Below, in pieces: positions 3,162 through 51,829 of a DNA stretch of 64,000 nt. Numbering within the stretch: the first letter of the stretch is position 1; each line of letters begins with the position of its first letter. The DNA comes from Cystobasidiomycetes sp. EMM_F5. Its lineage: Eukaryota. Both the position numbers and the translations under genes were made by a program. The stretch covers positions 1 through 64,000 of the forward strand of contig JBPGPT010000039.1 of NCBI GenBank assembly GCA_051047955.1, read 5' to 3'. The notes under the pieces are model-generated. The model did not search any database and was not told where the DNA came from. It saw only the letters and a list, made by a program, of their open reading frames with translations.

Positions 3162-5415
3162 ATGACTATGACCACGCTCTCGCTAGAACCTCTGCGGGCT
3201 GCTCTGACTGACGTTGACGAAAAGGGCGAGGCTGTCCTCGATGTCGCGCCTGATATCGCTGCAACGGCAACACTGGCAGCCCGTCTGCAGCGGCTATGGC
3301 TCGAACGGGGGGACTTTGGCAAGATATCGACGTCCAGTCTGCAGCAGGAAGCTGGCGATGACCAGAAAAAGTCCGCCGAAACATCTTTACTCGTTGGTAC
3401 AGAAGAGAGCCTGGTTGAAACGGCAGCAGCGTCGAGCGGTGATGACGATGAAGTCAACAGCCAGTTGACGCCCGAGCAGCTGTGGAATGTCAAGAGCGAG
3501 ATACTTCAAGGTCTCAAGTGAGCAGCTTTCAGGGATTTCTCATGTTTCAATATCGGTATTCATGTCTGGGGTCTCATTACAACCATTGCAGCCTGGCAAG
3601 AATCGACATTACATCGGCATTGGACTTGCTGCAGTTGTTACTCAATCCACTGGGCGCATTGAATCCAGTAGTCCCCGAAGATGCACTGGCACTACCATCG
3701 GGCAGCCTTTCGGCATCCCTGCTACACGTACCCTTGCCCCCACCCTCTGAGCAAGTACTCTTGAACAACATGGCATTGTCATTTGCTACCAAAGTCAAAT
3801 CTGTGGGAGCTGCATCCTCCGTACTCCGTAAAGCAAGTCAGCGGCTCGGACGAACTACCAACACAACACAAAACGAATGGACAGAGCTGCTTCGCTTAAA
3901 GCGGGCTGGCGAATGGCGTCTTGAAGCACACGGTTCTCGCGTTCCTGCATCCAGCTTGGATGTCGGCGCACCTGTCAACATTGACAAGCTTGCGAAGGAC
4001 GTTTTCGTCTTTTGTGGCATTGAGGAGGCTCAGCTACAATGGCGCCAGGCTGGTATTGCACGACTCAAGGACTCGACAACACCAACGTCGGGCACTGATG
4101 AGAAAGGATCTTTTCGCTTTGCGGAACGAGTCGAAGGCAGGCGTCGCTTGGCTGTCAAGATTAGCCTGTCCAGAGCCATCGCTTCTACCATGGATGATGT
4201 CAAGCCTGACGATAGGGAAGACTATGAGTATACTCCCTTAAGCCTCACAAAAGATGATGAGGAATCGACGGCGGGTGTGACCTCCTCCTTGAGCCGAGCG
4301 CAACGGGAGCTGTTCGAAGAAGAGCTGTTCGCGCAAATTGTGCACGAGGCGAGAGAATCCTCTCATAAAGTAAATGCTACACGCGAGTCTATCACTCTCA
4401 CGTTCCAAGCCGACCAGGGCAAGCCAATTGCCATCACCTTTACTATGGTGCCAAGCGATACAACACCCCGAGACGCAAGTTCAACTACAAGAGAGTCCGC
4501 GCGAAATGTACCTTTAGCCCGCATTGCGCACGCTGTCGTGCGATTAGCTCTGGTTGAAATCTACAGATCACGGCGCAGGAATCTGCAAATCACCTCTGCT
4601 CAAACGGCCATAGCGATGCCAGCTGATCCTCCAAGATTGCTGCCCCTGCTCGTGGAGTTGCTCACTTACTACGCATACGTTACCAACTTCCGGAACCACC
4701 TTCTAGCCATTCGTAATACTGTAGCTGGTCTATGTATTTTCGACGCTCAGCGACCTTTGCTGGTCGACTTTGTCGGACTCCTCGATGAGCCCAACGACGT
4801 TTGGACAGGCTTGCAGAATGGTGCGACGAGTGAAGGAGGACAAGCTGTTCGCCTAGGGAGCTCGATCATCTTACAATTAGGCGATCATTCTCTGCACTTT
4901 ACCTTGTCGTCCAGCAAATATACGACAATCTTGCATCTTCCAGAGCGCGACGTAACCCTGCCTTCACGGTCAGAAGTCGACACTGTTCTACAGCAAGGAG
5001 TTAGAGCGGCCGTGCTAGGGCAGTTGGAACATGTCCTGAACAATGCTACGAATGGTAAGCAAGGCTGGGAGGTCTTGCCTACCCCTCCAAACATTGGCAA
5101 AAATGCTCGTGCGCTTGCGAGACGCTCTGTCCCTGGGGTTACAGCGCATATTGCGGAGTTCATGTAAGCTCTGTCTATAGACGTGTGCGTCATTTTATCT
5201 AACGACACAATGCGCACGTTATCTTATTTGACAGTGCCGTCACACCTGTTGTCTCTATTTCCAACGGTACATCTAAGATTTCTCTAGAAGCCATCTTCTC
5301 CATTCGCAGTGAAGACCGTACCGTCCGATCTACATTCATTTCTACACCTGATGCGACAGACCACTCCGGACAGCCTAATCTTCCTGTATGGCTGGCTGAA
5401 CAGCTATCGGGCTGA
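3162..5415 (+). CDS. MED17: Mediator subunit 17 (Srb4)
   Basis: N-terminal 'LSLEP...LQRLWLERGDFGKIS', then 'ARIDITSALDLLQLLL' and 'LSRAQRELFEEELFAQIVHEA', all typical of fungal Med17. Introns at ~3518-3590 and ~5164-5234. Confidence 0.85.
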
Positions 5416-5503
5416 AATTCTGTGAAGCTACATTTGCTTGCTCACAGTTCGCAAGAGCTATGCTGGGTAAGTGGAACTCTACGATGTTGCGAAAGAATGC
5501 GCT

Positions 5504-7304
5504 CTAATGGAGTGCAGTGCGGTCCGCCCAAGCTTTTGTGCCCATCTCCACAAGACGGGACTGATGGCAAGTAAAACGCACCCAACATCAGCAAACATCC
5601 GCCCGGGGAACTGCACATGCAGAGTAACACTCACGACAGCTCGGGCAAAAGCAAAAACCTCCTCATCTCCTGTGAAGATGGAGGACGCGCCGACAGTTTC
5701 GGCATTCAGGCCAAGATCGTCCATCATTGATCTCTGGTGTGCTGAAATATCTTCGGATGCTGGACCTCGCTTATCGCTAAAGATTTCCGTTATCGGCACG
5801 TCGGACAGTGTCAATATTTTGGTTTTGCCCTCATAAGCGGCATCTATAAAGAGGATGAATCGCCTCGCACGATCTCGTTCGTTGAAGGTGAGTTGCGGTA
5901 TTTCATCGATGAAGATGGTTTCGAAATTGTTGACAATCTCAATGTAGTCTGCAGCAGACATAGGCTGCCCGCATAGCTCTGCAAAAGTGAAGCGCGCTAC
6001 GCGACCGCTCGATTGCGGGACGTGCAATTGACGACCCCAGACATTGAGCGTGCGAGTGGTGCTTACGCTATCAGCACCAAGGCCGCTTGCAGATGACGTC
6101 AAGCCGCCAAAGAGCTTGTCGAATTCGGAACGGTTCTCATTGGTGATTGGGTGGTAGTAGACTTTGGAGAGTGCCCGCGGCAATTTACGGTAATCTGTGG
6201 GTGAATCGAGATCTACGACCTTGAAACGCTCGTTTATGAGCTCAATGCACGGGATGAAGGAGGAGCGTTGTATGCCGTTCTTGTAGAGATCGTCAGGCGG
6301 GCGACTGGAAGAGAAGACAAATTCAGTCATACTGTGCGAATCAAGCAAGAAACCCGAAGTAGCTTCACTTTGACGTTATGACCACCACGAAGCCATAGCC
6401 GATGAGCGCTTCCAGTAGGCGTCTTAGTATCATTGCTGATTACAGCGGGAACAGTCAGGCGATGCGTCAATGTAAAAAGTTCGCGCCTACCATCCGCAAT
6501 ATCCGTCACTTGAAACTCGTCAAAGCACAGCATCCGACCGTCGCGTGCCAATTCTCTTGCTACTGGCACGATTGCATCGCCCTTGTTTGTTTGACCATCC
6601 TGCTGGCTGGCCATCCTATGCAATCGCTTGTGCACGTCCATCATGAAGGCATGAAAGTGTACTCTGCGTTTGCGTACGCTTGCAGGGAGGCTCTCGTAGA
6701 ACAAGTCCATAAGCATAGTCTTTCCGCAGCCCACGTCCCCGTAGAGATAGAGCGATTTCGGCACGTCTGGCGGAATCTCGGGCAGCGGTGGGACTGTCGA
6801 CACTGCGTCTCCAAACAGCCTGCCCATCCATCCAGACCTGGGCGAGGCATTCGACTCTGCCAGCGGTTCCGGGACTGGGGGTGGGTCATACTCGAGCACG
6901 GCTCTGTACAGCGACTCCAAATCTTCGACTACGGTCAGCTGGTGGGCGTCTTTTCTGAGCTGCCCCGCTTTGACGCGCTCTGCATATTCGTCTGCGGGTC
7001 CTTCTGGCGGTTCTGCGCTGGATGTGTATCTTCTGGCGCGTTGCTGGCGGGAATAGGGGATTGTATTGACTGCAGAATGACGGCGGAGCAGTGAAGGCGG
7101 CGTATATAAAACCTCAGCAGCAGCATTGGCAGCGGAATGGACGCCAGCTGTCCGAGTAATATGGCTATGCTTGAGTCTGCTGGGCTGCAGAGTGCGGTGA
7201 CCGAGAATGGCGGCTTTGGCTGCAATACTGCGACTACTGCCCGCGCTGATGCCATGTCCACAGGTGCATACAGCGCTACGCAGCATCGACTTCATGGCAG
7301 TCAT
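5504..7304 (-). CDS. AFG1: AFG1/ZapE-family mitochondrial ATPase
   Basis: Walker A YGDVGCGKT, HFHAFM, Walker B LCFDEFQVTDIAD, RPPDDLYKNGIQR, C-terminal FAFARAV|SRLVEM. Arg/Ser/Ala-rich presequence. Several introns. Confidence 0.93.
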
Positions 7305-7548
7305 GGCTGCATACCGGTAATTCGCTGAAAAGAGAAACCACCTTGGACCGGCCAGGAACGGCACTCGAGCCGAAAGCGGGGCAGGGCATATTATCCTAAC
7401 GAGGTAAACAATCGCGAGATTTTTGGATTGTTGCACATGTAGACTGTTACAATTGCTCATAACGACCATTCAATGGGCTTTGGCTATTCCCGCCACGTGA
7501 GCGTCAAGCATCACGTCTGCTGAAATGTCAGGACACTCAAATAATGTA

Positions 7549-8581
7549 TTACTTGTGCCTTCCGAAGGCTTTCCTTGTGCCTTGCCAAACGCGACTGTCC
7601 CTCAGAACATCCCGCATCCGTACCCTCCCGGCACCTGCATTGTCGCCAATCATCGGATCGCCATCGTTGTAAGGAAGGGAGGTCTGGTACGCCGCAGTAC
7701 TGAATGCACCACTGGCGCGCGACTGACGTCTGTCTTCACTTGGTCCGGCAGGATTTGGAGTTGTTGAACGCAAATTAGTGAGTGATTGCTGCGAAGCGCG
7801 ATTCGAGGCGGTTGTTCCAGCGTAGAATCGCTCCGCTCGCGTACCTGGGCCGCTTGAATGGTTCACACTGGTCGAGGCACCGCTGTCGCGTCGTCCGTGA
7901 TCCTCAGAACGGATCGGCAGGTTGGTACTGGATCCTAAATAACGCTCGTCAGCCGGTTGTTTGTTACGACGTGGCATTCAGCGCGGATTTGGATTCACCA
8001 AGCTGGAGTCCCGTCATCGGAACCTGGATACTGGGCTTACGGCTTGCCACAGATCCTTTGCTCCCTTCAGTAGGGTGTAGGTACAACTGGCTGCTTGACC
8101 CGCCTCCTGGTCGTCCAGATGCGAACGAGGGGAAGCCAGCGCTGTTCATCAGCTGCCTTGCATCGGAGCTGGTGCCCACGTTATACGATACAGCAGATGT
8201 AGGTGTTGAACCTACATCGTTTGAGCGGAACGGCATGCGAACACCAGAATCACCTGACGTGGCTCTGCTCTTCTGCTGCGACATTGTCAAACTTGTGGAA
8301 GAGGCATTCGGCGTGGGTACTGGCCGATGGATACGAATGGGCGTACGCTGTGATAGATTACTGATCCATTCACCAGCATTTGCTTTGTTTACGGTCAGCG
8401 TTTCGGACACAACGTGCCCGTCTGCCATTTGATGATTTATGCCGAATGTCTTCATGTCGCCATGTACAAGCACATACTGCACGCCAGATGTAGCTTTCGG
8501 GATAGGACGAATGCGGAGATAAGCCTGCTTGTTGACATTGATAGGCTGTTGTGTAAGGGCGTCGAGTATAGGTGTAGACAT
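7549..8581 (-). CDS. Orphan family B, member 1 (hypothetical; N-terminal beta-rich domain plus Ser/Arg-rich tail)
   Basis: ORF from ATG 8581 (MSTPILDALTQQPINVNK) can join ORF 7549-7977 through a phase-1 intron ending at CTGAC...TTTAG (7935). The N-terminus aligns with that of 10185-11015. Confidence 0.6.
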
Positions 8582-9129
8582 AGTGCTTTGTGTATTGTGA
8601 ACTCGAAACGATAGTTCGATGGTGAGGGATAGGGATAGAGAGGCAAGATGCAAGAGGCAAATAAATGCCTAAAATGTACCTGGAAAGCACCAGGACGGAT
8701 GGATCCCGATACTTCGGCCCAGCCGCCGTCCTGCTTCAGCACTGCCGGGCGCTGAGGCTGTTCTACGGGTGGTCCTCACATAGCGGTCTTTTCGAAAGGA
8801 TGCCTTGCAAAACCCGGACCATTCCTTTGCCTGGGGCCTGGCTGGCTTTCGTATCGCATTGCCGAACTGTTGTCAATTTTGCGATAGCACTAAGTGTCTG
8901 TTTCAGACTGAGAAGGTTGAAAAAAAGAGTCAGCCCTGCGGTTGGAAATGTCCGCGATTTGGATCTGGCGATTTGCTTATATTGTGCGCTGAGTCTGGGC
9001 ACCGAAGCAACAGAGTTTGAGCGGCATACACACTATCTGAACAGCGTATAGTATGAAAGCTGTATGTTTCAACTAGCAAAATCGCCGCGCGAGTGTATGA
9101 GTGTATGAGTGTATGATTGTGTGAATCTG

Positions 9130-9750
9130 TTACCATCTACGGCGAAGGAAAAACTGGCTCAACCAGCCCGCGGCTCTGGGACGTTTCTTCCCTTGTCGAG
9201 AAGCTGTCGGCTGCACAAATGATCGATTATTGACCGCAGGCGCATGTAACGGGTGCAGAAAGGCGTCTATGTCATTAAGGACTTGTTCCCGCGTGCGGTC
9301 GTGCTGAGGGGGAATGGTTGTCCGTGGCGCAGGCTTATCATTTCGATTACCTGCGCTCGCGCTCGTGCCGATAGTAGTGGACACCAACTTCTGTCTTCGA
9401 ACAGAGTGAGAGGTTGCCGGTACCTGCGTTACTTGCTGCAGTGAGTGAAACGATCGTGCCAGTTGTACACGATGTGGCCTGTTCTTCACATAGCAAATTG
9501 GTCGATTGAGCGCGTTTTCCACGTAATAACAATCACCGTCGGAAGACTTCGTCCAGATTTCTTTTTGAGAGTCTGGATGACTGCGAGCTGAATGGCGAAC
9601 CACGACTGTAGGTGGCGGACTGCCACCAACCCAGACATGGATGGGGGCGCCATCTGCGTGCAAGGACGGCACAACAATGTGTTCTACACTGCCCCAGTCG
9701 ATTGGTGTGCCCGTGTTGGTGATGTGATCATGCTGGATGTTCGGAGTCAT
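9130..9750 (-). CDS. Orphan family B, member 2 (hypothetical, 206 aa)
   Basis: Uninterrupted ORF. Shares PID...EHIVVPSL, ETW/EIWT.S.D...YYV...RP...(V/I)KNR and 'FLHP' motifs with 10185-11015. Confidence 0.7.
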   Translation of the reverse strand: MTPNIQHDHITNTGTPIDWGSVEHIVVPSLHADGAPIHVWVGGSPPPTVVVRHSARSHPDSQKEIWTKSSDGDCYYVENALNRPICYVKNRPHRVQLARSFHSLQQVTQVPATSHSVRRQKLVSTTIGTSASAGNRNDKPAPRTTIPPQHDRTREQVLNDIDAFLHPLHAPAVNNRSFVQPTASRQGKKRPRAAGWLSQFFLRRRW

Positions 9751-10184
9751 ATCAGGAGAGAAAATGGGTTCAGCGTTCCCGATTTGTGCAATGTGTATGT
9801 CACAGGTCAAGGTTGCTATAATGCAAGGGTTCTATACCGCAAAAGTGCGGCCTATATTCGCGCTTAAAAGGGGAATCTGCAGCGTCAAACGCAGCCACAA
9901 ACACAAAGGCACTAGCACGTCACCTACACTTTTCAAGGGTTTCACCGGGCGTGTATAAATAAAGGGCTTGCTATGCTTTTGCAATCGCGACGGCTACAGA
10001 GTCCGTCAATATAACTGAGGAGGTTGGCCTTTTATTATGAGTGAGTACTGCGACAGAAAGAGGCTGCTCAGTGCGGAGGATGTGTGACTAGACTTGATGT
10101 GTGACAGCTCTACAATTCTATGCGAATGGAATGCTCTACTGGCAGCGAACGGCAGTGGGAGAGAGCGCGATGACAATAAGAGGT

Positions 10185-11015
10185 CTAATGGGCCCCGCTG
10201 CGCGTAAAGGGGTGTCTGATCTTTTGACGGAGCCATTCCCTCTTTCGACCGGTACGATCGTCTGCGGAACGATTGGCGTCTCCGGAATCTTGCCGTAGCG
10301 GAGACGGCTGCCGCGCAGTTTGTCCGCTTGCGCCTTGAGAAAGCGATAGACGCGACCCTTGCCGAGAGGTCGGAAGCGTCTGACGGGATCGATTGGGGTG
10401 TAAAAATTCCTCGAGACCTGCTTGAAGGTCCTGTCTGGATCGTGTTGGATTGTCGAAGATGGCGGTACGACCTGACTGCTGACTGCTAGCAGATGGACGA
10501 CGTGCCGTGTTTTGCGTCAAGCCATACGTTTGTGGAAGAGTAAGGTTCGTAGCACTGGCAGATTGCTGTCGAGGTGTCCAGGCTCCGCCCAAGTTAGACT
10601 TCGGTATTGCGAGATTGGTGCGACTACCGGATGGTGTTGACCCTCTGCCTTGCCCTCCAGACTGAATTAAAGTGGCAGAGGCCGCGTACTGCTGGTTGCC
10701 GTATGGATTTTGTGCAGACGAGCGCTGTGCAGAGGCCACTGGCATCACAGTATACGGCATGTAGCGGTTGCGAATGTGTGCTACCGGTCGCTCAGCACTG
10801 CCTCTCACGTAATATGAAGTCCTATCATCTGAAAGCGTCCAGGTCTCCGCATCCTCACCGGGATGAGTGATCCAGATGCTCGGGTCGATGTTACTGTGAA
10901 CTCGGATATAGAGAGGCCCACTAGTCTTTCCTAGAGAAGGTATGACAATGTGTTCGTCTTTCGTGATGTCAATCGGTTGCTTGGTGCGATGGTCTAGTAT
11001 TTGTGCGTTTGACAT
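10185..11015 (-). CDS. Orphan family B, member 3 (hypothetical, 276 aa)
   Basis: Uninterrupted ORF MSNAQILDHRTKQPIDITKDEHIVIPSL..., homologous by eye to both neighbours. TATA-like element about 100 bp upstream. Confidence 0.72.
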   Translation of the reverse strand: MSNAQILDHRTKQPIDITKDEHIVIPSLGKTSGPLYIRVHSNIDPSIWITHPGEDAETWTLSDDRTSYYVRGSAERPVAHIRNRYMPYTVMPVASAQRSSAQNPYGNQQYAASATLIQSGGQGRGSTPSGSRTNLAIPKSNLGGAWTPRQQSASATNLTLPQTYGLTQNTARRPSASSQQSGRTAIFDNPTRSRQDLQAGLEEFLHPNRSRQTLPTSRQGSRLSLSQGASGQTARQPSPLRQDSGDANRSADDRTGRKREWLRQKIRHPFTRSGAH

Positions 11016-11107
11016 TTTGGGAATGGGTGGTGTTTGGATTGCTTGCGGTCTCAACTGTACACTGTGGAGAAGAGGTTAGAGGAAAAGCAAGGCCGTTGAC
11101 GGTGTTC

Positions 11108-11120
11108 TCTTTTTATAGGG
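11108..11120 (-). promoter_or_regulatory. Candidate TATA box for the 10185-11015 gene
   Basis: Minus strand reads CCCTATAAAAAG about 100 bp upstream of ATG 11015, followed by a pyrimidine-rich leader. Confidence 0.4.
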
Positions 11121-11382
11121 TTGCGGCGGCGTATGCACGGATCCAGCCCGCAGAAAGCTACGCCGACGTGCAGGACAGCCAGCTACTGCCTCTCCGACAA
11201 AGGCGTTAGTCAGCTCGCTCCGTACGCTCTTTGCTTTGCGTCGACTGGAGTGAGCTCGTCAGCTGCATCTTCAGTACATTTCATCGCTTTTTGTCAAAGT
11301 CGTAATTAGCTGATGCGTTGCCATTGAACAGCGGTCAGCGACACTCGAGTCTCCGCAATTACTCGCATTGCATCCAGCAGCC

Positions 11383-13445
11383 ATGTCGGAAGAACCCCCA
11401 GCGACGGCTGCGTCCATGGGCTTCTCAGCCATTCAGCAGCCATTGGCGGCCATGCGGGCCCTGGTCGATGCCGAACGCAAGGACGCCAGCAGGCTCAAGG
11501 TGAGCACAGTGAGCTGGCACTCGGATGTATGGCGATTGCGGGGCTCAGCAGTGCCGTGAGTTGGTCGATGGGCGAGGCAGTCGCGCTGGCTGATATGGTG
11601 GACGGGCATTTGGCAGTCGCGTATGGAAACCCGTTTTCTGGATAACCCTGTGGGCGACAGGTGGGCTGATGGATGCAAAGAGCTGAGACTGGCTGAAGAA
11701 TAATGGCTGAATTGCATTCACATTTACTCGCTGACACGGTTTACATCCCATCTGCCCCGCTTTGCTCACAGTCGTCGCAGTCATCGATCTCATCTTTGAA
11801 AAGGATCTCGGACTCACAAACAACGTCATGCCGCTCCTCTCAGTCGTGATTGGTCTCCTCCTCGTGTTCAGAAACAGTACCGCATTCGCGCGATGGCAAG
11901 AAGGGCGTGCTCTGTACAGCAACCTGTCCAACAACGTCCGCAATCTGGCACGCTTCACCTGGTGTGCTGTTGGAGCTCCAGTAGAAGAGCATGGGAGGCT
12001 CGACAGTGCTGGCAAACGTGTTCCTTACCGCGAAGGCGCATACGGGCCGAAGGAGCGGAGAGAAAAGATTGCAGCGCTCAGGTGGATGGTGAGTGGGCGT
12101 ACTGAGTGTAAAGATGGCCCGTCTAAACGCGTCACCTTATATAGGTGGCTTTCGTCGTCGCCAGCAAGTGCGTCTTCGCACGTTACACGGAATGGCTATC
12201 CTGTTTACATCTGAAATTGACGTTCCATCCGTGAAGGCATCACGTCAGAGAAGAGTATTCGACAGACTACGAAGATCTCCGCGCACTCCTACCTGCCAGA
12301 TTCTTGGCGCAGTTTGCCAAGTTTGGGTATGGATACGGATCCGTCGAGTATGTGTCTTCGCTCTGAACGAATGGGTCACAATTACCTAAAAGGCTTCAAC
12401 AGTGCTGATCTTACTCGAGAGCGCAGTGCGAGTGACGCTCCACCGAACCTTGTCGGGAAACCTTCGATAGCTTCGCTCAACTCCAATGCGACCGATGTAA
12501 TCGCAATTGAGGGAGAAGGCGATGTCACAACACCACTGCTATCCAGCAGATCATACGACGAGACGGTCGTTGTCCATAAGTTGAATGGTCGGCCAACACT
12601 GCCACTGCCGTTGTGCATTGCACATAGGCTTCAGCTATATTTTGCGAGTAAGCTCGCGACGTGGGCTGATTTCGCATGCTTGCTTATCGAACTTCACAGA
12701 ATGCAAGGCGAAAGGACTTCTAGAAAGTGTTGGTCCTGCTGGGTAAATCAAAGCAGCACGCGGCCTGCTAGTAAACGCTGACTACGCATCGCGATAGCTA
12801 CAACAACGCTACCCAGACTATATCGTCGTTGGTAAACGAGTTCACAGGCATGGAGAGGCTTCTCACGCTTCCGTTACCTACTATTTATGGCGTCCACCTG
12901 TGAGTGTGGCGAACTTTTCTGCTTGCGATGCCATCTGACAGAGGTCATTTCTCAGCAAGCAGACCGTCACATTGTATCTTGCAGTGTTGCCCCTCGTTCT
13001 AGTAGACAGTGAGTAGGCGTGCAAGGTGATTGTGTTCGCTACCCGGTGGTCGCATTGACTCTGTCTTTTGATGTATCAGCTCTTGGATGGAAGATCGTCC
13101 CCACAGTGACTGTCATCGCGTTTACCCTGCTCGGCATTGAAGTCAGTATTGGTGACACTCCGACAAAATTAGATCCTGCTGATCTATAGCACACAGGGCA
13201 TTGCCAGCGAAATCGAACAGGTACAGCCTATATCAAACGCTTTCATGCATCTCTGACGGATACTATGCAGCCGTACGGTTTCGACAAGTCTGACCTGCCT
13301 TTGGACTACATGGCGGCAGAGTTGCGTAATGAAGTAAGCTCGGCTCATGACTACCTCGAGAACAGCGTGCACTGACGCCCGTCGACAGATTGAGCAGATG
13401 ATAGCGAGACTGAGGGAGGTTCCCGAGGACGATCTACTTTTCTGA
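11383..13445 (+). CDS. Bestrophin-family (UPF0187/YneE-like) anion channel
   Basis: LLSVVIGLLLVFRNSTAFARWQEGR in 11762-12214. Downstream exons give MERLLTLPLP.IY..HL and GIASEIEQ|PYGFDKSDLPLD, the canonical E-P-[FY]-G-x-D-x-x-DL motif. Many short exons. Confidence 0.88.
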
Positions 13446-14139: not shown

Positions 14140-14505
14140 ATGTCAGATCGATCTCGACACTTACCTCCGCTGCCCCAGCCGGGACGTAACGGTGCGCCGC
14201 GACACTATACGTCCCGCGATCAGAGATTTCACCGCAGTTTCCACGACCAATTCGATTACGCTGAGAGCAATCCTGATATCGCCATTCCCCTCTTCATATT
14301 AGGGACCGCGACACAGGAAGCGCTTCGAAGAGATCAGCGCAGGTATGGACGGCATACACGTACTGGCAGGCATGTACGACGAAGGCTGCCCATTTCAAAT
14401 TTCGATCGTGCCGTAGCCATTCTATCTGGTGTGCTGCGGCGTACTGGTCGGTACACGGTGTTGGCGCGCTTAGCGCCGCCTCAGGTGCTCGAGGTGGATG
14501 AATAA
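14140..14505 (+). CDS. Orphan family A, member 1 (121 aa, Arg/His-rich)
   Basis: Uninterrupted ORF from ATG 14140. Motifs PQPGRNGAPRHY..RDQRF / ALRRDQRRYG / SNFDRAVAILSGVLRRTGRY are shared with six neighbours. Confidence 0.8.
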   Translation: MSDRSRHLPPLPQPGRNGAPRHYTSRDQRFHRSFHDQFDYAESNPDIAIPLFILGTATQEALRRDQRRYGRHTRTGRHVRRRLPISNFDRAVAILSGVLRRTGRYTVLARLAPPQVLEVDE

Positions 14506-15297
14506 AAGATTGGTGCCAAAGCTGAAGATGTCTGTAGTTGACATGACTGCATCGTGAAAATCACTACAGTATCCGAAGGCCAGGTGGCTTCGGTGGGATG
14601 ACAAGCTAACAATACGCGAGTGTTCCAGCCTTGCGCAGTGCCCACCATGACATTCTCGACTCACATTCACATAGCGTACATATGGCCATGGTTCATATTG
14701 CTCGTATAACCCTTCGTAATCCCTTTGGAGTCGCACGGCACACCTTCTGACGACTCGTTCGACATTGCTCACACCCCAGTGGCCTCGCGTCATCCCGTGC
14801 CGGGTACCCACTGGCAAGCTGATATCAGTATCGCAGCAGGGCGCTGTGTATTCCTTGCATGATACTCGCATATAGTCCCGAGAACGCTCATACGACACTC
14901 AGTCTTCGGACAATGCTCAAGCACAACTTGGCAAGCTTGTATTGAGACCGCTGCAGTTGCGCCTGGCTGGATGAACCTGCCTGTAGACACCCGGATCTCG
15001 CCTTGGGTACCTTAGGTATCTGGCGATGACCGAAAACATGCACGTCCGGAGATGGCTGTGCAGACTCGATGCCTCCATCACCAATCACACGAAAGAGGGT
15101 GGTCTTTGCCACTGAATCTAGCATTGCCATAACTTAGCAGCGTGGGAAGGTCTGACGCTTCGCATCCTACACTGGCGCCCCAGATTGCTGCCGACGGAGT
15201 GCATCTCTGGCCTGGCTTGCCTCAACGCAAACTGTCGTGCCAACGCCACTCTTCGTCTCCACGCAGTCTAGGACAGGACTGACCTCATCATCACATA

Positions 15298-15648
15298 ATG
15301 GCTCGTAGGAATTCGGACTCAGACTGGTCGATGCCTCCCCCTGGAGTTAACGGGGCGCCTCGTCACTGGACGCGTGCAGATCAGAGATTCTTTCGCAATT
15401 ATAGTCGCCTGGAGGATGCTGATGACTGGATGTACCCTGCATTCGCCGGTGGAGACGCTCTGCGACGTGCGTTGGATAAAGATCGGCGCAAACATGGCCC
15501 GCGTTCGTCTGCACACTATAGACGCAGACCGCCAGCGTCGAATTTCAATCGGGGAGTCAATATCCTACGCCGGACGCTCAGATACGCTGGGCGCAACATG
15601 ACGATCATGAGGCTAGCGCCGCCTGTGATAACTGTCGTCGAAGACTAG
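15298..15648 (+). CDS. Orphan family A, member 2 (116 aa)
   Basis: PPPGVNGAPRHWTRADQRFF / ALRRALDKDRRKHG / SNFNRGVNILRRTLRYAGR. Confidence 0.8.
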   Translation: MARRNSDSDWSMPPPGVNGAPRHWTRADQRFFRNYSRLEDADDWMYPAFAGGDALRRALDKDRRKHGPRSSAHYRRRPPASNFNRGVNILRRTLRYAGRNMTIMRLAPPVITVVED

Positions 15649-16401
15649 AGCAACGACATCTAGCCACATCTAGTCGGGCGACTTGTGATTTTTAGACAAT
15701 AGACTGCCTGCATAGAATACCACGATGCTCTGCTGCACATTCTGATTAAATTCTGATTCACGAATGGCGTCGCTTCCGTATGAGACCGTTTCCTGAAAAG
15801 AGCTTCTCATAATGCGGGGCTGTAGCGATACTGTAATGTCGGCTATGCTCAAACAAGACCACGACTAGCGCTGTCGGAAAGAGGTCCGCATAGATAATGA
15901 CGATAATGACGGCCTTGGAGCTCAGTACCAGTTCAAGAAAGACGCGCAGTCACGGTCATGGTCAGGTATCCGACATGGCTGGCTCACGATGAAACAAGAC
16001 GGCAACTAGGCTCTGGCGACACGACGGGCTATGGCTTCTCATTACATGCCGACACCGTCGTGAATATATGACAGAATCAGTGTACGGCCAGCGCGTACTG
16101 GCAATTGGCGAATAAATATCGACATTATATCACACTGCCAATGTCCTCACAGTCCTGACTGCTCAGTGACGGGAGGCAGCAAGGCGGTGTGTTTTCGCAT
16201 CTTAGAGGGCACAACATCAGCTGTGCTTCCCACGGAGACCGGACAGTCACCCACTGCAAACAGCATAGCCGCGACATGACGGGCTTCTGAGAAATGTGGA
16301 CTCGCTGGCAACCATTCGAAAAGTCTCGCTGCTTGACTATCTCCATCCATCCCAGTCAGAGCGCTCTTTCTCTACTCTCGACAGCTCCCGTGTCACTCCA
16401 A

Positions 16402-16821
16402 ATGGTGTCGGATATAGATATACGTCCAGTGGGACCACCAGGACTTCCACCACCTCCCAACCGCTCAAATGGCCGACCGGGGCGCTGGACTAGTTCTGAA
16501 CAACGTTTCTTCAATCTTGCCCACCAAGTTGGTCCCAGCATGGACGGTTGGATGATTCCGGTGTTTACTGCCGGATATGCTGCACACCGTGCACTTTGTG
16601 AAGACCAAGATCTCTACAATTCTCGTCACTCACGACGCGGCCGTCACGCAAGACACCATCGCCGTCATGGCCGAGGATCAGACGGGCGTCCGCCCCCCTC
16701 TTTCGACCGTGCGCTACAAATAATGACGGGAGCTATTCAGAGGATGGGTCGCTTGTCGCACATGCTCCATGTGGCCCACGTCCGTACCAACGGCTCTGAG
16801 GGGTCCGGCTATGACATCTGA
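16402..16821 (+). CDS. Orphan family A, member 3 (139 aa)
   Basis: NGRPGRWTSSEQRFF / AAHRALCEDQDLYN / PSFDRALQIMTGAIQRMGR. Confidence 0.8.
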   Translation: MVSDIDIRPVGPPGLPPPPNRSNGRPGRWTSSEQRFFNLAHQVGPSMDGWMIPVFTAGYAAHRALCEDQDLYNSRHSRRGRHARHHRRHGRGSDGRPPPSFDRALQIMTGAIQRMGRLSHMLHVAHVRTNGSEGSGYDI

Positions 16822-17493
16822 TGTACAAAGGGTACGATACGGGGCATACATATGATACCAAAAAAAGCTGCTTGTTGCGCATCCCTGCAAGGTCGAATCA
16901 TACCGTTAACGCAACGATGTACAATTTCAGATTACTAGACTAACAGCTATCGTACCTCATGCCGTGATTGTGTCGCTAAGAACTGGGCGTTTGCGTATCT
17001 GTCATCGATTTCTTCATGTTCACGAGGCTCAGTATGCATCGCCCTGACATTTCCCCCTCCCTTGGCCAGCTAGCACCGTGCGCACTTGTAATCTACAGAT
17101 CATTGATAGTGCTTTGCTGGAGCATCTTCAAGTGCCAGCTAAAGCTATGCTCTACCAGATTAAGCAAGTATCGGAATCAGCTTTCGTGGTGAAGAGGGAC
17201 CGCCTCCGAAGAGTAGTACAATCAAAGTTTCACAGCTATATCTACGACTCCATATACCTGCTGGATGACTGGCTCGAACCGGCTCAATTCAAATTCGCAT
17301 TCATTGGTGTCTTTACCGTCCGCACCGCCTCGCGCAATACTGCTCTATGGGAAATGGCTGCGACTGCCTGACAACACTACGTACATTCTCACATTGTCTT
17401 ATACAAGTCGTGCGACAAGTGTACGTACTGATTGTCCATTCTACTCCAGTATCTTTTTACTGAGCCACTTCGGATTTGCTTTGATTGCCTCGT

Positions 17494-17913
17494 ATGTCTG
17501 ATAGGAACGCGTCTCGCTCTGGACCGCCGAACATACCCGCGCCCGGTCAACACGGTGCCCCGCGACGCTGGAGGAGAAGCGAACAACGAGATTTTCAACG
17601 TATACACCCACATCTTGTCGACGAGTCTCCAGACTGGGTGCTCCCTGTGATAGCTGGCGGATTTGCATTATATCGCGCAGTTCGTCGGGATCAGCACTTG
17701 TACAACCCTCACTCAACGACACATCATCGTCATTCAGGCCATCATCGTTACTCGAATTACCGTCGTCATGAGCGAAACAGACCGGTGCCCTCCAACTTCA
17801 ATCGGTCAATCCAAATCATTGATCGTGCCCTCAGAAACTCCGGTCGACTGATAATGATGTTAAGGTTGTCCGTACAGAACCACAGCGATAGCGGTAGCCT
17901 CGCTGATGACTAA
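17494..17913 (+). CDS. Orphan family A, member 4 (139 aa)
   Basis: PAPGQHGAPRRWRRSEQRDF / ALYRAVRRDQHLYN / SNFNRSIQIIDRALRNSGR. Confidence 0.8.
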   Translation: MSDRNASRSGPPNIPAPGQHGAPRRWRRSEQRDFQRIHPHLVDESPDWVLPVIAGGFALYRAVRRDQHLYNPHSTTHHRHSGHHRYSNYRRHERNRPVPSNFNRSIQIIDRALRNSGRLIMMLRLSVQNHSDSGSLADD

Positions 17914-18591
17914 ATGACAATCACGACATTGATAAAATTGTTTACTATGTCAACCATAATTGCTATGCTTGCTTACACGAATCTCTGCTCTAATCATAGT
18001 GAATAAAATGACTGATGGCGTCGAAGCTCCCGACTGTCATCTGTGCATCACCCATCTTTCTACTGTAGACATTGCGCGCCCACGCTCTGTAGCAGACTTG
18101 AATGCAACTCCACTTTCGGTGAAACCTGACCGTTCGGCACCCAGCTGCTACCAGGAGTCACCCATGCCATCGTATTTATAGACTGAGCCTGGTGCATCTC
18201 CCAGAGTGCAGTAAGCAAACTTAACTCATTGAACACGCCTCATCTTAAGCTGCAGCTGAACATACAGGCCGCAAGCATGGATCAACATAGTCGCTTCACC
18301 ACAGGCCGTAGATTCGTGACATTCCAGCGTAAAGCCACTTACCTTTTGTCAAACGAGCTCACCGCCTCGCCGAATTATTGCAATCCGGTTTCGGGAGTCA
18401 CACGGCATACCCACTCTCTACTGTACAACAAACAGACTAGACTAACCGCTCTGCGCGAAGAGTGAGAAATTGCAACGGGATGTTGTATAAATTCCCCAAA
18501 TTTCAAGGCCTCCCCAAAAAAGGCATGACTTGGAGACTATGCGAAGTGTAGCTCGACTCCAATCACATAGACCCGCATCAAGTTCTGCGCG

Positions 18592-18753
18592 ATGGCTCAA
18601 CTTCCCCAACCAGGGCACACTGGTCCTCCACCACCACCAGGGTATCCACCTCAACAGGGTCAATTCAACCAGTACCAAGCATATCCCGGTCATGCTCAAC
18701 AAGGTCCCTTCGATGCGCACCAACCACAGGAACATCAATTTCAGGCTAGAATT

Positions 18754-18788
<35 letters not shown>

Positions 18789-19185
18789 CAACATCAACAG
18801 CAGGCGAAACAGAAACGTCCGCACAAGCTCGCTTCCTCCTCTTCCTCCTCCTGCAAGAAGAAGTGCAGGGGGAGGAAGAAGATCCTGGAAAGGTCATGAG
18901 CAGGATATGTTCCGTAAGGCACATAAAAACCTTCAAAACGCAAATGAAACGGAAAATGCACTGTTTGTTCTGGGCATGGCCGCACGTCACGTTTTGCGCC
19001 AAGATCAACGCAGGTATGGCCAGCGATCGCAAAGAAGCCACTATCGCACTCAGCACAGTCAACGAAGAGACCCGGCAGCGTCCCCCTTTAACCGAGGCTT
19101 AAGTATATTGTCCGGCTTCCTGAAAACCACCGGGCGTTATGTCGAAATGCTTAGCCTGTCGCCGGTACATCAGTATGAAGCTTGA
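18592..19185 (+). CDS. Orphan family A, member 5 (197 aa, with Q/P-rich and poly-Ser N-terminal extension)
   Basis: GRRSWKGHEQDMF / AARHVLRQDQRRYG / SPFNRGLSILSGFLKTTGRY. Confidence 0.8.
18754..18783 (+). repeat. (AGC)10 trinucleotide microsatellite encoding poly-Ser in family A member 5
   Basis: Perfect AGC run, continuing imperfectly as AACAGCAACATCAACAGC. Confidence 0.9.
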
Positions 19186-19684
19186 ATGGGGTAAAGTGTA
19201 ATATGGAGCAGACCACGTAGCTCCATGATTCGAATTATCGGCGCGATATCGATACTCCTGTACAATATGTGCTCGCAACTGTTCTGCGCTGCAATTTCCA
19301 ACTGCACTGTGTTCCGAACGAAGCGGCTTGGACACGAAAGTAGTAGTGCAGCTCATCCATGCAGTGCTGTTGCGTTCGGTATGCAGGGATGAATGCTGTA
19401 AGGATTCAGAGCCGTCTAACCCCGATCCGAGAACAGAGGAGTCTCCACAAGGTCAATTTGGTCTCCGCAACTTATTGCAAGCGACTGATTACGCGCTTTT
19501 GACTGATGACACCGCAGTAACACCTCCCTATGTCTTCCGAACGGACAGTCCGACATTGGACTAGAGCACCGCCTCAATGTTGAACACAAACAGGGCACTG
19601 GTGTCACGGAATAGCAACCGCGCGTTTTCCCCCTGTTGATTCAAGACCAACTGTCGCCTTGTGCTTCCTCGACGAATCCTCAAA

Positions 19685-20155
19685 ATGAGCGACATACAAT
19701 TCCGAACAGCGCAGCGACATCCGCAATTGCCAGCACCCCAGCAATTTGGAAGAAGGAATTGGCGAAGCCACCATCAAGCCTTCCACACTCGTATGAATGG
19801 TCTTGTGCAGGGAGATGCTAGTGCGCTGTCTGCAGCACCGTGGGTCCCTGCTGTCTACATTGGAGGCAGCGCTCTCTTGCATGCCATCAAGAGTGACCAG
19901 CAGAAGTATCCTTCTAGAGGAGGCAACAATCACGGACGTCATCATGATCGTCATTCCCACCACCGTAGAGACAGAGAAGACCGACATTCTCGCCATAGAC
20001 ATAGACAGAGACGTCCCCCTCCAGCTACTTGGGACCGTGCGCTAAGATTTTTCGACAAGCTCTTCGAGACAGTCGGAGCTTATAGTGTACTCGGAATGTC
20101 GGTGCAGGTAGGAAGCCAAGCAGGAAGCTTAGTTAGTGACATGACCGAGCCGTGA
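19685..20155 (+). CDS. Orphan family A, member 6 (156 aa)
   Basis: LPAPQQFGRRNWRSHHQAF / ALLHAIKSDQQKY / ATWDRALRFFDKLFETVGAY. Longest His/Arg insert of the family. Confidence 0.78.
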   Translation: MSDIQFRTAQRHPQLPAPQQFGRRNWRSHHQAFHTRMNGLVQGDASALSAAPWVPAVYIGGSALLHAIKSDQQKYPSRGGNNHGRHHDRHSHHRRDREDRHSRHRHRQRRPPPATWDRALRFFDKLFETVGAYSVLGMSVQVGSQAGSLVSDMTEP

Positions 20156-20822
20156 CGGCATGTCTGCCTGAACCTGCCGCACCCATTTTCAGACTACGCG
20201 ACTGAAAGCCGTCATTGTTTTTCTGTAGCAAACAGACGTTGTCGGACAGCTGATTACGATAAGATGTACATGCTATTACGGATGGAACAATCCACGTGTG
20301 AAGCTGTCAAGTCTTGGATATTGGTGCTCGCAGGTACTTGCGAGGCATTGATGCTGACACCTCACGCCCAGAGAATAGGTGGATGAGAGATCCTCCTGTA
20401 CCGAGGCTGACGATTTCAATGACAATTGAGCTGCACTCAGCCCTCGAACCCGATGATAGATCAGTTTCCTTATCGTCGACACCGGTGCAGTCTCTGTGTG
20501 CACTTACCTGTATACCTGTGTATGTGATGCTCAACTTCAGTAATGAGTGAACGCGTTTGCCACATCGAATGACCCTATCAGCACAGCATTGTCCAATGGG
20601 TCAAAGAAGTCCGAAGCACCGCATTGTCCTTATTGCGTGGCACGGCACTGTCTTACAGACATGACAAACACCCGTCTGGATTAATAGATTGTTGCAGTAG
20701 CAGTAGCAGCTGGTAGTGAAGAGCGGTCCGCTCATCATTGCTCTCACACACCAAACCCCAGGAAGGAGCCATCGACGTGACTCGGGCCTGTCCTGGAAGC
20801 TTAACGAACAGAGCATCGCACA

Positions 20823-21203
20823 ATGTCAGCACGCGGCAGACCGTATGCAACTATGCCATCTCCCGCAACGTTCGGCTTGACCAGATGGCATCACCGCGAT
20901 CAGAGATTTTTAGCGCAACTCCACCAGCTGGAAGGTAGCGATATGCCTTTTAACAATGCCTTGGTTCTAGGCGCATTTGCGTTTGGTCAGGCCGCACGCC
21001 TTGCAATTCGCAGGGATCAACAGCGGTACAATGGTCGGCATCGCAATAATCGTCATGGCCATGGCCGACATTCGCGGGGTTCCACGCGTGCACCACCATC
21101 GACTTGGGATAGGGGACTGAGGCTTCTTCGCACTATCATAGAAACTACTGGGCGGTACGGTGCACTCGCATCGGCAGGTATAGAAGTTGTGAACGACGAT
21201 TGA
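20823..21203 (+). CDS. Orphan family A, member 7 (126 aa)
   Basis: MPSPATFGLTRWHHRDQRF / AARLAIRRDQQRYNG / STWDRGLRLLRTIIETTGRY. Alternative ATG at 20853. Confidence 0.8.
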   Translation: MSARGRPYATMPSPATFGLTRWHHRDQRFLAQLHQLEGSDMPFNNALVLGAFAFGQAARLAIRRDQQRYNGRHRNNRHGHGRHSRGSTRAPPSTWDRGLRLLRTIIETTGRYGALASAGIEVVNDD

Positions 21204-21781: not shown

Positions 21782-22262
21782 TCAAGCTTCCTCCTTTTCG
21801 AGCTGCTCCCTCCACGTTCTCCAGTGTTCGCCCTGCGCTTTTGCCAGTTCTGTTGCGCTCGCATCCTGTGCTATGGCTTCCCGGAATGCGGGGCTCTCGA
21901 CGAGCAGCTCGAGGTGGTGAAAGCACTGCGGATAGTGGACAAACTTGCTGTAGCTAGGTCTGCGAAAGTAAGCGAGGTAGTCGAGGTACTGGATGAATGC
22001 AGGATTGGAGAGGACGCCTTGCTGAGCCAGAGCTGAGCAATATCAGTAGGGATGCACCTCGTCAGCCCCGTCTGTTAGCTGGCCATTGCTCCAATTTGCG
22101 CACTCTGCAGATAGAATGGGTTGGCGAGGCATTGCACAAACTGGAGCACAAATGGGTCCAGGTCAGCGTCAGTATGCTGCCATTGCATTTGTATTAAATA
22201 CAAACCTCGAGGTCAGCTTCAAAGCGAGCTCGGTTGGCAGCCTTGAAGGCTTCCGAAGTCAT
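21782..22262 (-). CDS. MED31: Mediator subunit 31 (Soh1)
   Basis: Manual splicing of 3 exons gives MTSEAFKAANRARFEADLE|FVQCLANPFYLQ|TLAQQGVLSNPAFIQYLDYLAYFRRPSYSKFVHYPQCFHHLELL...FREAI...HWRTWR, the classic SOH1 signature. Not present in the ORF track. Confidence 0.92.
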
Positions 22263-50300: not shown

Positions 50301-51567
50301 TTGCGCTCAATCTCGGCAGCTCGCGCTTCTTCCTCCTCTATCCGCCTCCTCTCTTCCTCCTCTTTTCGGCGTGCTTCTTCCTCTGCAGCCTTCTGCTTCT
50401 CCATCGCCGCACGCAATGCTGCAATATGCGCTGGTACCTTTTTACCAGCTGCAGGAGCTTTGGCTGCAGCGGCAGCGGCCTCCTCTTTCTCGGCAGCTCC
50501 ACCCTTCTTCTTCTTCTTTTTGTTTTTCGAAGCGGAACTTCCGCCTGCAGCTTCTGCATCTTCCCCATCTTCGCCACCAGCAGCAGCGGCACTGTCTGCT
50601 TGAGCGGTCGCCGTTTCCGCATCTGCCGGAGCCGCCTCATTATCTGCTGCATCATCCGCTTTAGAACTACCGGTAGTCGCCTTCTTTGCTGCCGCCTGGG
50701 CTTTCTTTTTGGCCTGTTGTATTTACAGGTTGATCAGCATCAGAGATGCGACCAATCTGTCCCATGGCCTACCTTGTCCTTTTCTTTCTTTAGTCGCTCC
50801 TTCTCCTTCTTCGAAAGGACCTTGGTTCCGCCAGCATCGTCACCGTCGTCATCGTCACCAGCATCACCGTTAGTCGTTGCTGCCACAGGCGTGGTTGCGG
50901 TTGTAGTAGTATCCTTCTTTTCATCCTTCGCCTTCGGCTCGCCATCCACAGTCAAGTCTTTCGCCTTGTCCGCTAGGAGATCATCGTCGTTGTCAAATGG
51001 GTCTGGCTGCTGAGCTTTGCCCTTCTTGCCCTTTTTGCCCTTGCCCTTCTTTGCCGTGGGTTCCCCAAACTCTTCGTCCATCAGTTGTTCGGCAGTCATT
51101 GCAATTGGCGCTTTGCTAGCGAGATCAACAGCGGGCTCAGCTGCGGCGGTCTCTGCTCCATTTTCGTCCGCGTCTTCGTCGTCCAACGCAGTCGTCTTCT
51201 TCTTCTTCTTGTCCTTCTTGTCCTTTTTCCGCTTCTCGCTAGCTTTCGCAGCAGCCATCAGCCCTCCGCCTTCATCGTCCTCATCGTCGTCGTCGTCGTT
51301 GTTGTTAGCTGCGCCCAGAGCTGCAAAGCTGAACCGAGATGCGCTGCTTGGCGCCGGGACATCGTCTTCATCTTCGTCGTCTGGAACAGGGTTGGCCTTC
51401 CCAGGCGGCTTGATAGCTGGCTCCCCGTCAGACCTAGTCATGCCACAAATTCCCCAAAGTGATCCAATTTCCAGTCAATTGAAATGGCCATTACACCTCG
51501 CCATGGCGTAGCAGCCTTACCAGTCTCCCGCTTGCTGCACCTTCTTACCCTTCTTGCCTTTCGCCAT
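47319..51567 (-). CDS. FUN12: Eukaryotic translation initiation factor 5B
   Basis: Charged K/E/D-rich N-terminus, [53 protein letters not shown]-terminal SIDTLK..FR. Confidence 0.96.
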
Positions 51568-51829
51568 GTTTGCAGAATTTAGGATTGTTGCAAAGGCAAG
51601 CCTAGTCGACGGTCAGACATTCGCAGTCACACGCTCAAGCATGGCAAAAAGACATCTAAGACACTCCGCAGGTATTGCATGACTCTACCAAGTTCCATTA
51701 CGGAAAACGACAACAGTAGCCTCTATTGTGACTTAACAGCCGACGTCTGCAAACAAAAACTAAAACTGATAGTCAACATCAACATCCTACACATACGTAC
51801 TTCCTGATGACGCCTGATCATACACATGA

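Follow-up and report, generated by a model that had tools for sequence, protein, structure and literature searches.

An old tandem array of seven Arg/His-rich paralogs with a predicted three-helix fold in a Cystobasidiomycetes contig

Why does a fungal genome keep seven small, strongly basic proteins of one and the same architecture side by side, and what could these proteins be doing? The question is raised by the first 64,000 nucleotides of contig JBPGPT010000039.1 from Cystobasidiomycetes sp. EMM_F5 (GenBank assembly GCA_051047955.1), a stretch that is hereafter called the window. On its plus strand, between positions 14140 and 21203, it carries seven uninterrupted and co-oriented open reading frames (ORFs) of 116-197 amino acids (aa), numbered o1 to o7 in their order along the strand (Table 1). 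An earlier annotation made from the letters alone, here termed the sequence-only reading, had described them as an unrecognised, lineage-specific family of Arg/His-rich intracellular proteins, and the ORF list and the translations agree with it on the positions and the orientation of all seven. Our comparisons show that the array consists of seven intact, intronless-looking genes that stem from an old tandem duplication of a unit of ~1.1 kb, and structure prediction suggests that the encoded proteins are helical bundles from which a cationic loop emerges. As to function, the binding of a polyanion is the reading that we prefer, with a probability of about 35%.

Judged by their sequences, the seven ORFs are true paralogs. 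In a MAFFT alignment of the seven proteins (A1, with column numbers following o1), all blocks of the five-block architecture that had been claimed for them are visible: a Pro-rich N-terminal block that ends in G-x-P-R-x-W and is followed by [DE]-Q-R-F, a Gly/Ala-containing hydrophobic stretch that closes with R-x-D-Q-x-x-Y, a variable Arg/His-rich insert, the motif P-S-x-[FW]-[DN]-R ahead of a G-R-containing amphipathic stretch, and short, mostly acidic C-terminal ends that indeed read EVDE, VVED, GYDI, LADD, QYEA, MTEP and VNDD in the translations. Ten columns of A1 are invariant, among them P12, P14, G18, Q28, G55, A57, D65, R90 and G103, and protein identity across the family is 23-46% (34-46% to o1, 23-35% to o6). 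Similarity remains significant after low-complexity masking: when all proteins are compared with one another by BLASTP (SEG-masked, database size set nominally to 1e8 residues), 11 of the 21 protein pairs are found at E<1e-3 and o4-o6 additionally at 0.001, with o1-o2 as the best pair (3e-16), followed for example by o2-o4 (9e-15), o5-o1 (4e-11), o4-o3 (2e-9), o7-o1 (4e-7) and o6-o7 (1e-4), and all seven proteins fall into one linked network. A hidden Markov model (HMM) built from A1 recovers, out of the 1626 pieces of a six-frame translation of the window, precisely these seven copies (E 3e-42 to 9e-57), and as the next piece scores only E 0.14, there are no extra or decayed copies that this search detects in the 64 kb.

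The DNA itself, as had been claimed, displays no obvious repeat. When the seven DNA units are aligned with MAFFT, the alignment is confined to the coding parts, BLASTN at a word size of 7 detects no matches among the eight spacers and merely three short ones among the coding sequences, and neither six-frame BLASTP nor BLASTN finds a second conserved element or ORF in the spacers. Nei-Gojobori counting on the codon alignment gave, across the 21 pairs, proportions of nonsynonymous differences (pN) of 0.37-0.55 and of synonymous differences (pS) of 0.69-0.92, which means that the synonymous sites are saturated; the ratio of the corresponding rates (dN/dS) is computable in just four pairs, where it amounts to 0.21-0.35. 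Identity at codon positions 1, 2 and 3 is 0.46, 0.55 and 0.30, respectively. Since every one of the 21 pairs has a lower pN than pS and the synonymous sites have reached saturation, the copies have to be regarded as old duplicates under purifying selection, and with the unalignable spacers this supports what the sequence-only reading had proposed about their age. In a maximum-likelihood tree, the terminal branches are 0.42-1.29 changes per site long, and only two groupings have moderate support, namely o6 with its neighbour o7 (92/97) and o1 with o5 (82/88). As far as such comparisons among the copies reach, they show that the copies have been retained as proteins and that their amino-acid sequence has been under constraint since the old duplication.

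Could the ORFs be non-functional or never translated, either as relics of a duplicated segment or as young de novo ORFs without a role? The lack of any homologue in the searched collections would agree with this, as would the lack of a shared promoter motif and an indistinct codon usage. None of the 6-, 7- or 8-mers shared by the upstream regions (in seven, at least six or at least five of the seven) rises above Markov shuffles, with one common 6-mer found against a null mean of 0.81. Relative synonymous codon usage (RSCU) of the array ORFs correlates with that of eight housekeeping ORFs of the window at 0.21 in frame and at 0.60 in frame +1, but this test is uninformative because several known genes fail it too in this weakly biased genome: for Sec8, a known gene of the window, the respective values are 0.31 and 0.57, and the wrong frame is thus favoured as well. 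Against a non-functional array stand the seven of seven frames that are intact despite saturated synonymous sites, the alignability that is kept in coding parts only, the near-random third codon positions next to second positions that are 55% identical, and the confidence with which AlphaFold2 derives a fold from the seven sequences. We consider it highly unlikely that the array is without function.

An arms race that drives both copy number and divergence would be another way to arrive at such an array, and in this case the ORFs would be genes of a genetic conflict, for example a killer element or meiotic driver, toxins with their antidotes, or a family devoted to intracellular immunity. An orphan family with seven diverged tandem copies, long terminal branches and a highly variable loop would suit such a history. 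However, pN is below pS in every pair and the motifs are conserved, all copies share one architecture, so that no two-component pairing is visible, and the genes lie in a housekeeping setting with no transposon or repeat signature. A role in genetic conflict is therefore quite unlikely in our view.

Neighbouring copies follow each other at ATG-to-ATG distances of 1092-1158 bp, but measured from a homologous anchor, the Q in Q-R-F, the distances are 874-1317 bp, and the evenness of the ATG starts is thus partly a coincidence. The unevenness of the anchor spacing is due to o5, in which a Gln/Pro-rich N-terminal extension of ~75 aa with a poly-Ser run precedes the family core. In this protein, the N-terminal block needs the ATG at 18592, because the first internal Met falls within helix 1. 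In-frame ATGs further upstream would lengthen o1 to 169 aa (13996) and o3 to 175 aa (16294). The Gln/Pro-rich extension (18592-18810, plus strand) has a prion-like appearance, includes a P-P-x-Y-type motif and occurs in o5 only.

Do these proteins belong to anything that is known? Pfam lists no family at E<=1 for six of the seven, and the single match of o5, IMUP, is sub-threshold (15.5 bits at a cut-off of 27) and lies in the low-complexity extension. A word-indexed profile search of 5.8 billion clusters returned two matches, both of them genes of the window itself. A full HMMER profile scan of 1.84 billion representatives gave nine matches at E<=1e-3, of which the four strong ones (1e-33 to 1e-47) are o3, o7, o1 and o2 themselves (o3 being identical to library entry P0003), and the five weak ones are four TPR-repeat proteins (P0006-P0009) and one internally repetitive protein (P0005). 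The whole-protein E values of the weak matches, which reach 3e-5 to 5e-7 for the TPR-type proteins, are misleading because 5-10 repeats are summed in them. After rescoring, no single stretch exceeds 10.6 bits, which corresponds to a per-stretch E of at least 5e4 for this library, and the TPR proteins were rejected as homologues, their similarity being a chance pattern. P0005 (595 aa, from the same representative library) contains a repeat of ~50-100 aa whose end resembles the helix 3 region of the family; as each repeat reaches only 7-9 bits, it was rejected as a homologue, and the resemblance is taken as chance.

Other collections gave the same picture. Sequence searches of the PDB reached best E values of 0.51 and 0.75, over coiled stretches, the ESM Atlas (named clusters only) contains no usable match for o4 or o2, and two metagenome pattern scans, for which the sub-alignments A3 and A5 were used since A1 is too diverged for patterns, produced 205 and 179 pattern matches, not one of which was confirmed. 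Full-text literature searches brought up nothing on such a family among titles and abstract openings. The description as an unrecognised family thus holds, as neither Pfam, PDB, ESM Atlas, metagenomes, structure searches nor the 1.84 billion representatives contain a detectable relative beyond the genes of the window, and in this narrow sense, the proteins cannot be placed in any described family or fold class.

Whether they are also lineage-specific, as the sequence-only reading had it, is a different matter. The missing relatives speak for it, but their absence is weakly informative. The Med17 ORF of the window, used as a control for the databases, does find fungal relatives, but its best non-self matches are only 40-42% identical, and the best named one, from Cystobasidium minutum, has 37% identity, so the host looks like a Pucciniomycotina-type basidiomycete that has no close sequenced relative in the searched collection. 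Orphan status is weak evidence when the nearest sampled relative is that distant: with paralogs that are 23-46% identical and a neighbouring gene whose relatives are 40-42% identical, orthologues in other classes could escape detection. In fungi with sparse sampling, lineage-restricted families of this small and basic type are frequent, and we infer that the present one is restricted to a Pucciniomycotina-like lineage that has been poorly sampled and in which it may have arisen de novo.

What do the proteins look like? AlphaFold2 was run on o1 and o6 with an input alignment of the seven paralogs only. The o1 model has a mean predicted local distance difference test score (pLDDT) of 76.2 and a predicted template modelling score (pTM) of 0.67, with helices at residues 25-41 (with one kink), 45-69 and 87-111, and the o6 model has a pLDDT of 73.2 and a pTM of 0.59, with helices at 28-50, 53-74 and 115-153. 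An up-down-up three-helix bundle is predicted for both, about two thirds of each protein being part of the folded helical bundle, and the family members are thus predicted to be soluble bundles of this type. The Arg/His-rich insert is predicted to be a disordered loop of 16-40 aa between helices 2 and 3 (18, 16, 28, 31, 23, 40 and 25 aa in o1 to o7), and in o6, where it spans residues 75-114, the block-mean pLDDT drops to ~47-51. Lys is absent from all seven loops. The Q-R-F and D-Q blocks are separated by a nearly constant 34-41 residues. The conserved motifs fall on predicted helix boundaries: helix 1 begins with [DE]-Q-R-F, helix 2 closes with R-x-D-Q-x-x-Y, and P-S-x-[FW]-[DN]-R opens helix 3. 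In such a topology, the conserved polar motifs, including the Pro-rich N-terminal block, would come together at one pole of the bundle, which is the pole where the loop emerges; this placement is read from secondary-structure boundaries and topology rather than from coordinates. A two-copy prediction for o1, in which the alignment was not used, scored 0.01 at a mark of 0.32, and no conclusion on self-association is drawn from it.

No specific structural relative of the models turned up in the searches. Foldseek yields no match in the PDB at E<=1e-3 (best 3.3), with the SPX domain of Vtc4 appearing in its list as weak matches at E 5.1-7.3 and a probability of at most 0.06, and a structure search of BFVD gives no match at E<=1e-3 either (best 0.81). 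In a wide search with VIA-align, no chain reaches Z>=8 for either model. The best match of the o1 model has Z 5.9 at a root-mean-square deviation of 3.0 over 85 aligned residues, that of the o6 model Z 7.5 at 4.0 over 98, and values of Z<8 are in the background range for helical models.

Many of the top structural neighbours are transmembrane helical hairpins (FtsX, ABC exporters, TMC/TMEM16), and this brings up the possibility that the array encodes small membrane or organelle proteins, for example hairpins of the mitochondrial inner membrane or of lipid surfaces, whose Gly/Ala-rich, hydrophobic helix 2 and amphipathic helix 3 would dip into the bilayer. The G-x-A that is invariant in helix 2 and its 11-13 apolar residues in a row would be compatible with this, and Arg-rich basic proteins are common in mitochondria. 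But the best 19-residue Kyte-Doolittle means of the seven proteins are 0.59-1.34, and a membrane span is usually expected to reach 1.6, so that of the hydrophobic helix described by the sequence-only reading the hydrophobic stretch is real, albeit not of membrane grade. Moreover, the N-termini have an Asp at position 3 and Pro runs, which is unlike a presequence, and the structural Z values in question are within the noise for helical models. A membrane location is therefore unlikely. The N-termini are polar, hydropathy indicates no segment of signal-peptide or transmembrane grade, and there is a single Cys in the whole family; on these grounds the proteins look intracellular and devoid of signal peptides, as had been stated before.

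The proteins are strongly basic. Their isoelectric points (pI) are 11.3-11.7 and their net charges +8 to +15, and the 994 residues of the seven proteins include 144 Arg, 9 Lys, 62 His and 1 Cys, which is in agreement with the earlier remark that Cys is almost missing. Arg thus makes up 14.5% and His 6.2% of the family, as compared with 6.8% Arg, 4.6% Lys and 2.5% His in the eight housekeeping ORFs. The label Arg/His-rich is hence justified for the overall composition but less so for His in the individual members, as there are only 3 His in one protein and 14 in another, and His positions are not conserved across the family.

This bears on the idea that the proteins bind or buffer metals such as Zn, Ni or Cu, with the His-rich loop as chelator and the tandem copies raising the capacity, similar to amplified metallothionein genes, which raise metal-binding capacity. 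The elevated His content could be taken as an indication, and the loops of o3, o4, o6 and o7 hold 4-7 His each, often as H-x-H or HH. The loops of o1 and o5, however, have only 2 His each and that of o2 a single one, none of the invariant columns, which are occupied by P, G, Q, A, D and R, is an H, the entire family has a single Cys, and the copies diverged long ago instead of having been amplified recently. Metal binding is thus as unlikely in our eyes as the membrane location.

The N-termini suggest yet another possibility, as four of the seven (o1, o4, o6 and o3) start with M-S-D or M-V-S-D and continue with Pro-rich sequence, which may resemble the leader of MSDIN-type precursors of ribosomally synthesized and post-translationally modified peptides. 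Such precursors are ~35 aa long and consist of a conserved leader and a Pro-flanked core, whereas the array proteins have 116-197 aa with a conserved folded core, and neither a prolyl oligopeptidase nor another tailoring enzyme was found among the 106 ORFs or pieces, covering part of the window, that were scanned with Pfam. They were thus not assigned to the MSDIN type, and a precursor role is very improbable.

What is then the most plausible role? The sequence-only reading, whose interpretation is supported in part, had thought of condensing nucleic acids or other polyanions, of metal binding and of condensate formation, perhaps in connection with spores or mating, and these may be taken as candidate roles. 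For the reasons of charge and topology given above, we propose that the proteins bind a polyanion, the likeliest being nuclear or nucleolar RNA or DNA, with the conserved pole as the specific site and the loop as an electrostatic arm. Conserved pole and cationic loop would together form the binding face, the folded core would supply specificity or self-association, and the loop would contribute a non-specific electrostatic grip, while the short acidic C-terminal tail might act as an intramolecular damper. The paralogs would differ mainly in the length and charge of the loop and may represent graded or condition-specific versions of one activity. At about 35%, this is a tentative assignment, and several points weigh against it. 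The evidence for the role consists of charge and topology, from which it is inferred, and the predicted topology in turn comes from alignments that contain just the seven paralogs. Young de novo ORFs in DNA of ~52% GC also tend to be rich in Arg and low in Lys, and the Arg-rich, Lys-poor composition therefore need not reflect function. The best structural neighbours of the models are generic helical hairpins and bundles and so provide no functional lead. Co-regulation of the seven genes is unsupported, since no upstream motif stands out from the shuffles, and codon usage fails to separate the reading frame of the array from the other frames. The probability that is left over by the possibilities discussed here is assigned to functions other than those listed.

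A more far-reaching version of polyanion binding can be envisaged as well. The proteins could constitute a new class, i.e. folded three-helix proteins with a Lys-free Arg/His loop, which would serve as a graded set for the compaction or protection of nucleic acids in dormant or stress-resistant cells of a Pucciniomycotina yeast, with loop length tuning the seven paralogs and with Lys avoidance selected as an escape from ubiquitylation or acetylation. We regard this as a speculative and unlikely scenario, but if it were true, such proteins would be the functional equivalent, in a fungus, of protamine-like systems or of systems of small basic proteins. Provided that the proteins are made, the array would in any case offer a compact natural series of one small fold with a shared pole and a Lys-free loop of 16-40 residues, with which one could examine how polyanion binding or condensate formation depends on the length of the loop and on its content of Arg and His, and also why lysine is avoided by a protein family. 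An orphan family whose age has allowed synonymous sites to saturate and which is nevertheless invisible outside its lineage also bears on the persistence of de novo or fast-evolving genes.

Table 1. The seven paralogs of the array and other features of the window.
Feature	Position	Strand	Remarks
Paralog o1	14140-14505	+	121 aa; family HMM E 6e-45; ORF, BLASTP links
Paralog o2	15298-15648	+	116 aa; shortest loop (16 aa), only 3 His; ORF, BLASTP, HMM
Paralog o3	16402-16821	+	139 aa; ORF, BLASTP, HMM
Paralog o4	17494-17913	+	139 aa; best match of the family profile, E 9e-57
Paralog o5	18592-19185	+	197 aa; ORF, alignment A1, BLASTP, HMM
Paralog o6	19685-20155	+	156 aa; longest Arg/His loop (40 aa); ORF, BLASTP, HMM
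Paralog o7	20823-21203	+	126 aa; pairs with adjacent o6 in the tree
AGC microsatellite	18754-18803	+	16.7 copies; codes for the poly-Ser run of o5
Med17	3482-5167	+	upstream of the array
AFG1-like ATPase	5479-6348 and 6327-7469	-	two ORFs with overlapping ends
ORF without Pfam family	7782-8429	+	
ORF without Pfam family	9133-9831	-	
ORF without Pfam family	10188-11075	-	
Bestrophin-like exon	11735-12211		just upstream of the array
Med31/SOH1 exon	21785-22042	-	directly downstream of the array, opposite strand

The genes that flank the array are, according to the Pfam scan, ordinary fungal housekeeping genes (Table 1). Further genes of the window encode a five-fasciclin protein, Sec8, an M24 peptidase and an EF-Tu-type translational GTPase, and the scans of the window revealed no tRNA or Rfam family, transposon-like repeat or biosynthetic enzyme. 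The profile of the AFG1-like ATPase is split between its two ORFs, positions 3-142 being found in one and 161-339 in the other, which points to an intron or a shift of frame. Med17 and Med31/SOH1, both of them Mediator subunits, flank the array within 20 kb of each other, which is probably a coincidence. The region 7500-11700 contains ORFs of 216-296 aa on both strands to which no Pfam family can be assigned, and the largest unassigned gene of the window is an uninterrupted ORF of 1043 aa at 53447-56578 on the minus strand (no Pfam family at E<=1e-3). Within the window, strand asymmetry is most pronounced at 50001-52000 (AT skew -0.286, GC skew -0.179), a region that also contains short tandem repeats at 50325-50383 and 51025-51055.

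How do the array proteins compare with known systems? With helical hairpins and bundles of the PDB, such as FtsX (8hd0_C), ribosome recycling factor or AHSP, and also with coat proteins of rod-shaped archaeal viruses, they share antiparallel long helices, but sequence identity to the PDB neighbours is only 1-12%, and no family stands out. HIG1-type hairpins of membranes have two hydrophobic spans of transmembrane grade, and membership in this group was rejected in view of the hydropathy of 0.59-1.34 and the absence of a Pfam match. CHAD and SPX are helical domains that bind polyphosphate and inositol phosphates, and the array proteins have no Pfam match to either of them. The TPR-type proteins P0006-P0009, which by our reading of their sequences have an N-terminal kinase-like or ATPase-like part ahead of the repeats, have in common with the family the short pattern [FY]-D-R-A-[IL]-x-I ... 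G-R at the start of helix 3; TPR proteins are built from tandem helix pairs of 34 residues, whereas no Pfam TPR model matches the array proteins, each of which has a single copy of the pattern, and they were not assigned to this type.

The LYR-motif (Complex1_LYR) proteins are small, basic three-helix bundles of mitochondria and resemble the array proteins in their length of ~100-140 aa, a pI above 10 and three helices. They are marked by a conserved L-Y-R/K tripeptide in helix 1; in the array, however, L-Y-R is present in o4 only (one of seven), where it lies in helix 2, and with no Pfam match, the array proteins were not placed in this family. LYR proteins are absent from the 50 best VIA-align chains of both models, a result that does not exclude this fold, as all these chains have Z<8.

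Protamines and other sperm nuclear basic proteins share with the family the bias of Arg over Lys, the high pI and the lack of a signal peptide. Yet in protamines, Arg accounts for about half or more of the residues of a largely unstructured chain, whereas the array proteins have 14.5% Arg and three predicted helices over most of the chain. The term protamine-like, which the sequence-only reading had considered, is hence appropriate with respect to the Arg-over-Lys bias but not with respect to Arg content and disorder, since about two thirds of the protein are in the predicted bundle, and the array proteins were not counted as members of this group.

The nearest functional analogy may be the arginine-rich-motif RNA-binding proteins, i.e. 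the small helical Rev/Tat/N class. Pfam, the profile scan and the PDB sequences provide no sequence or profile relation to them, and the Arg-rich stretch of the array proteins, unlike theirs, is a variable and disordered loop between helices 2 and 3 and not a recognition helix. By this analogy, the array proteins may work, at most, like small Arg-rich nucleic-acid binders, with which they share the small size, the strongly basic character, the clear excess of Arg over Lys and a helical scaffold beside an Arg-rich stretch.

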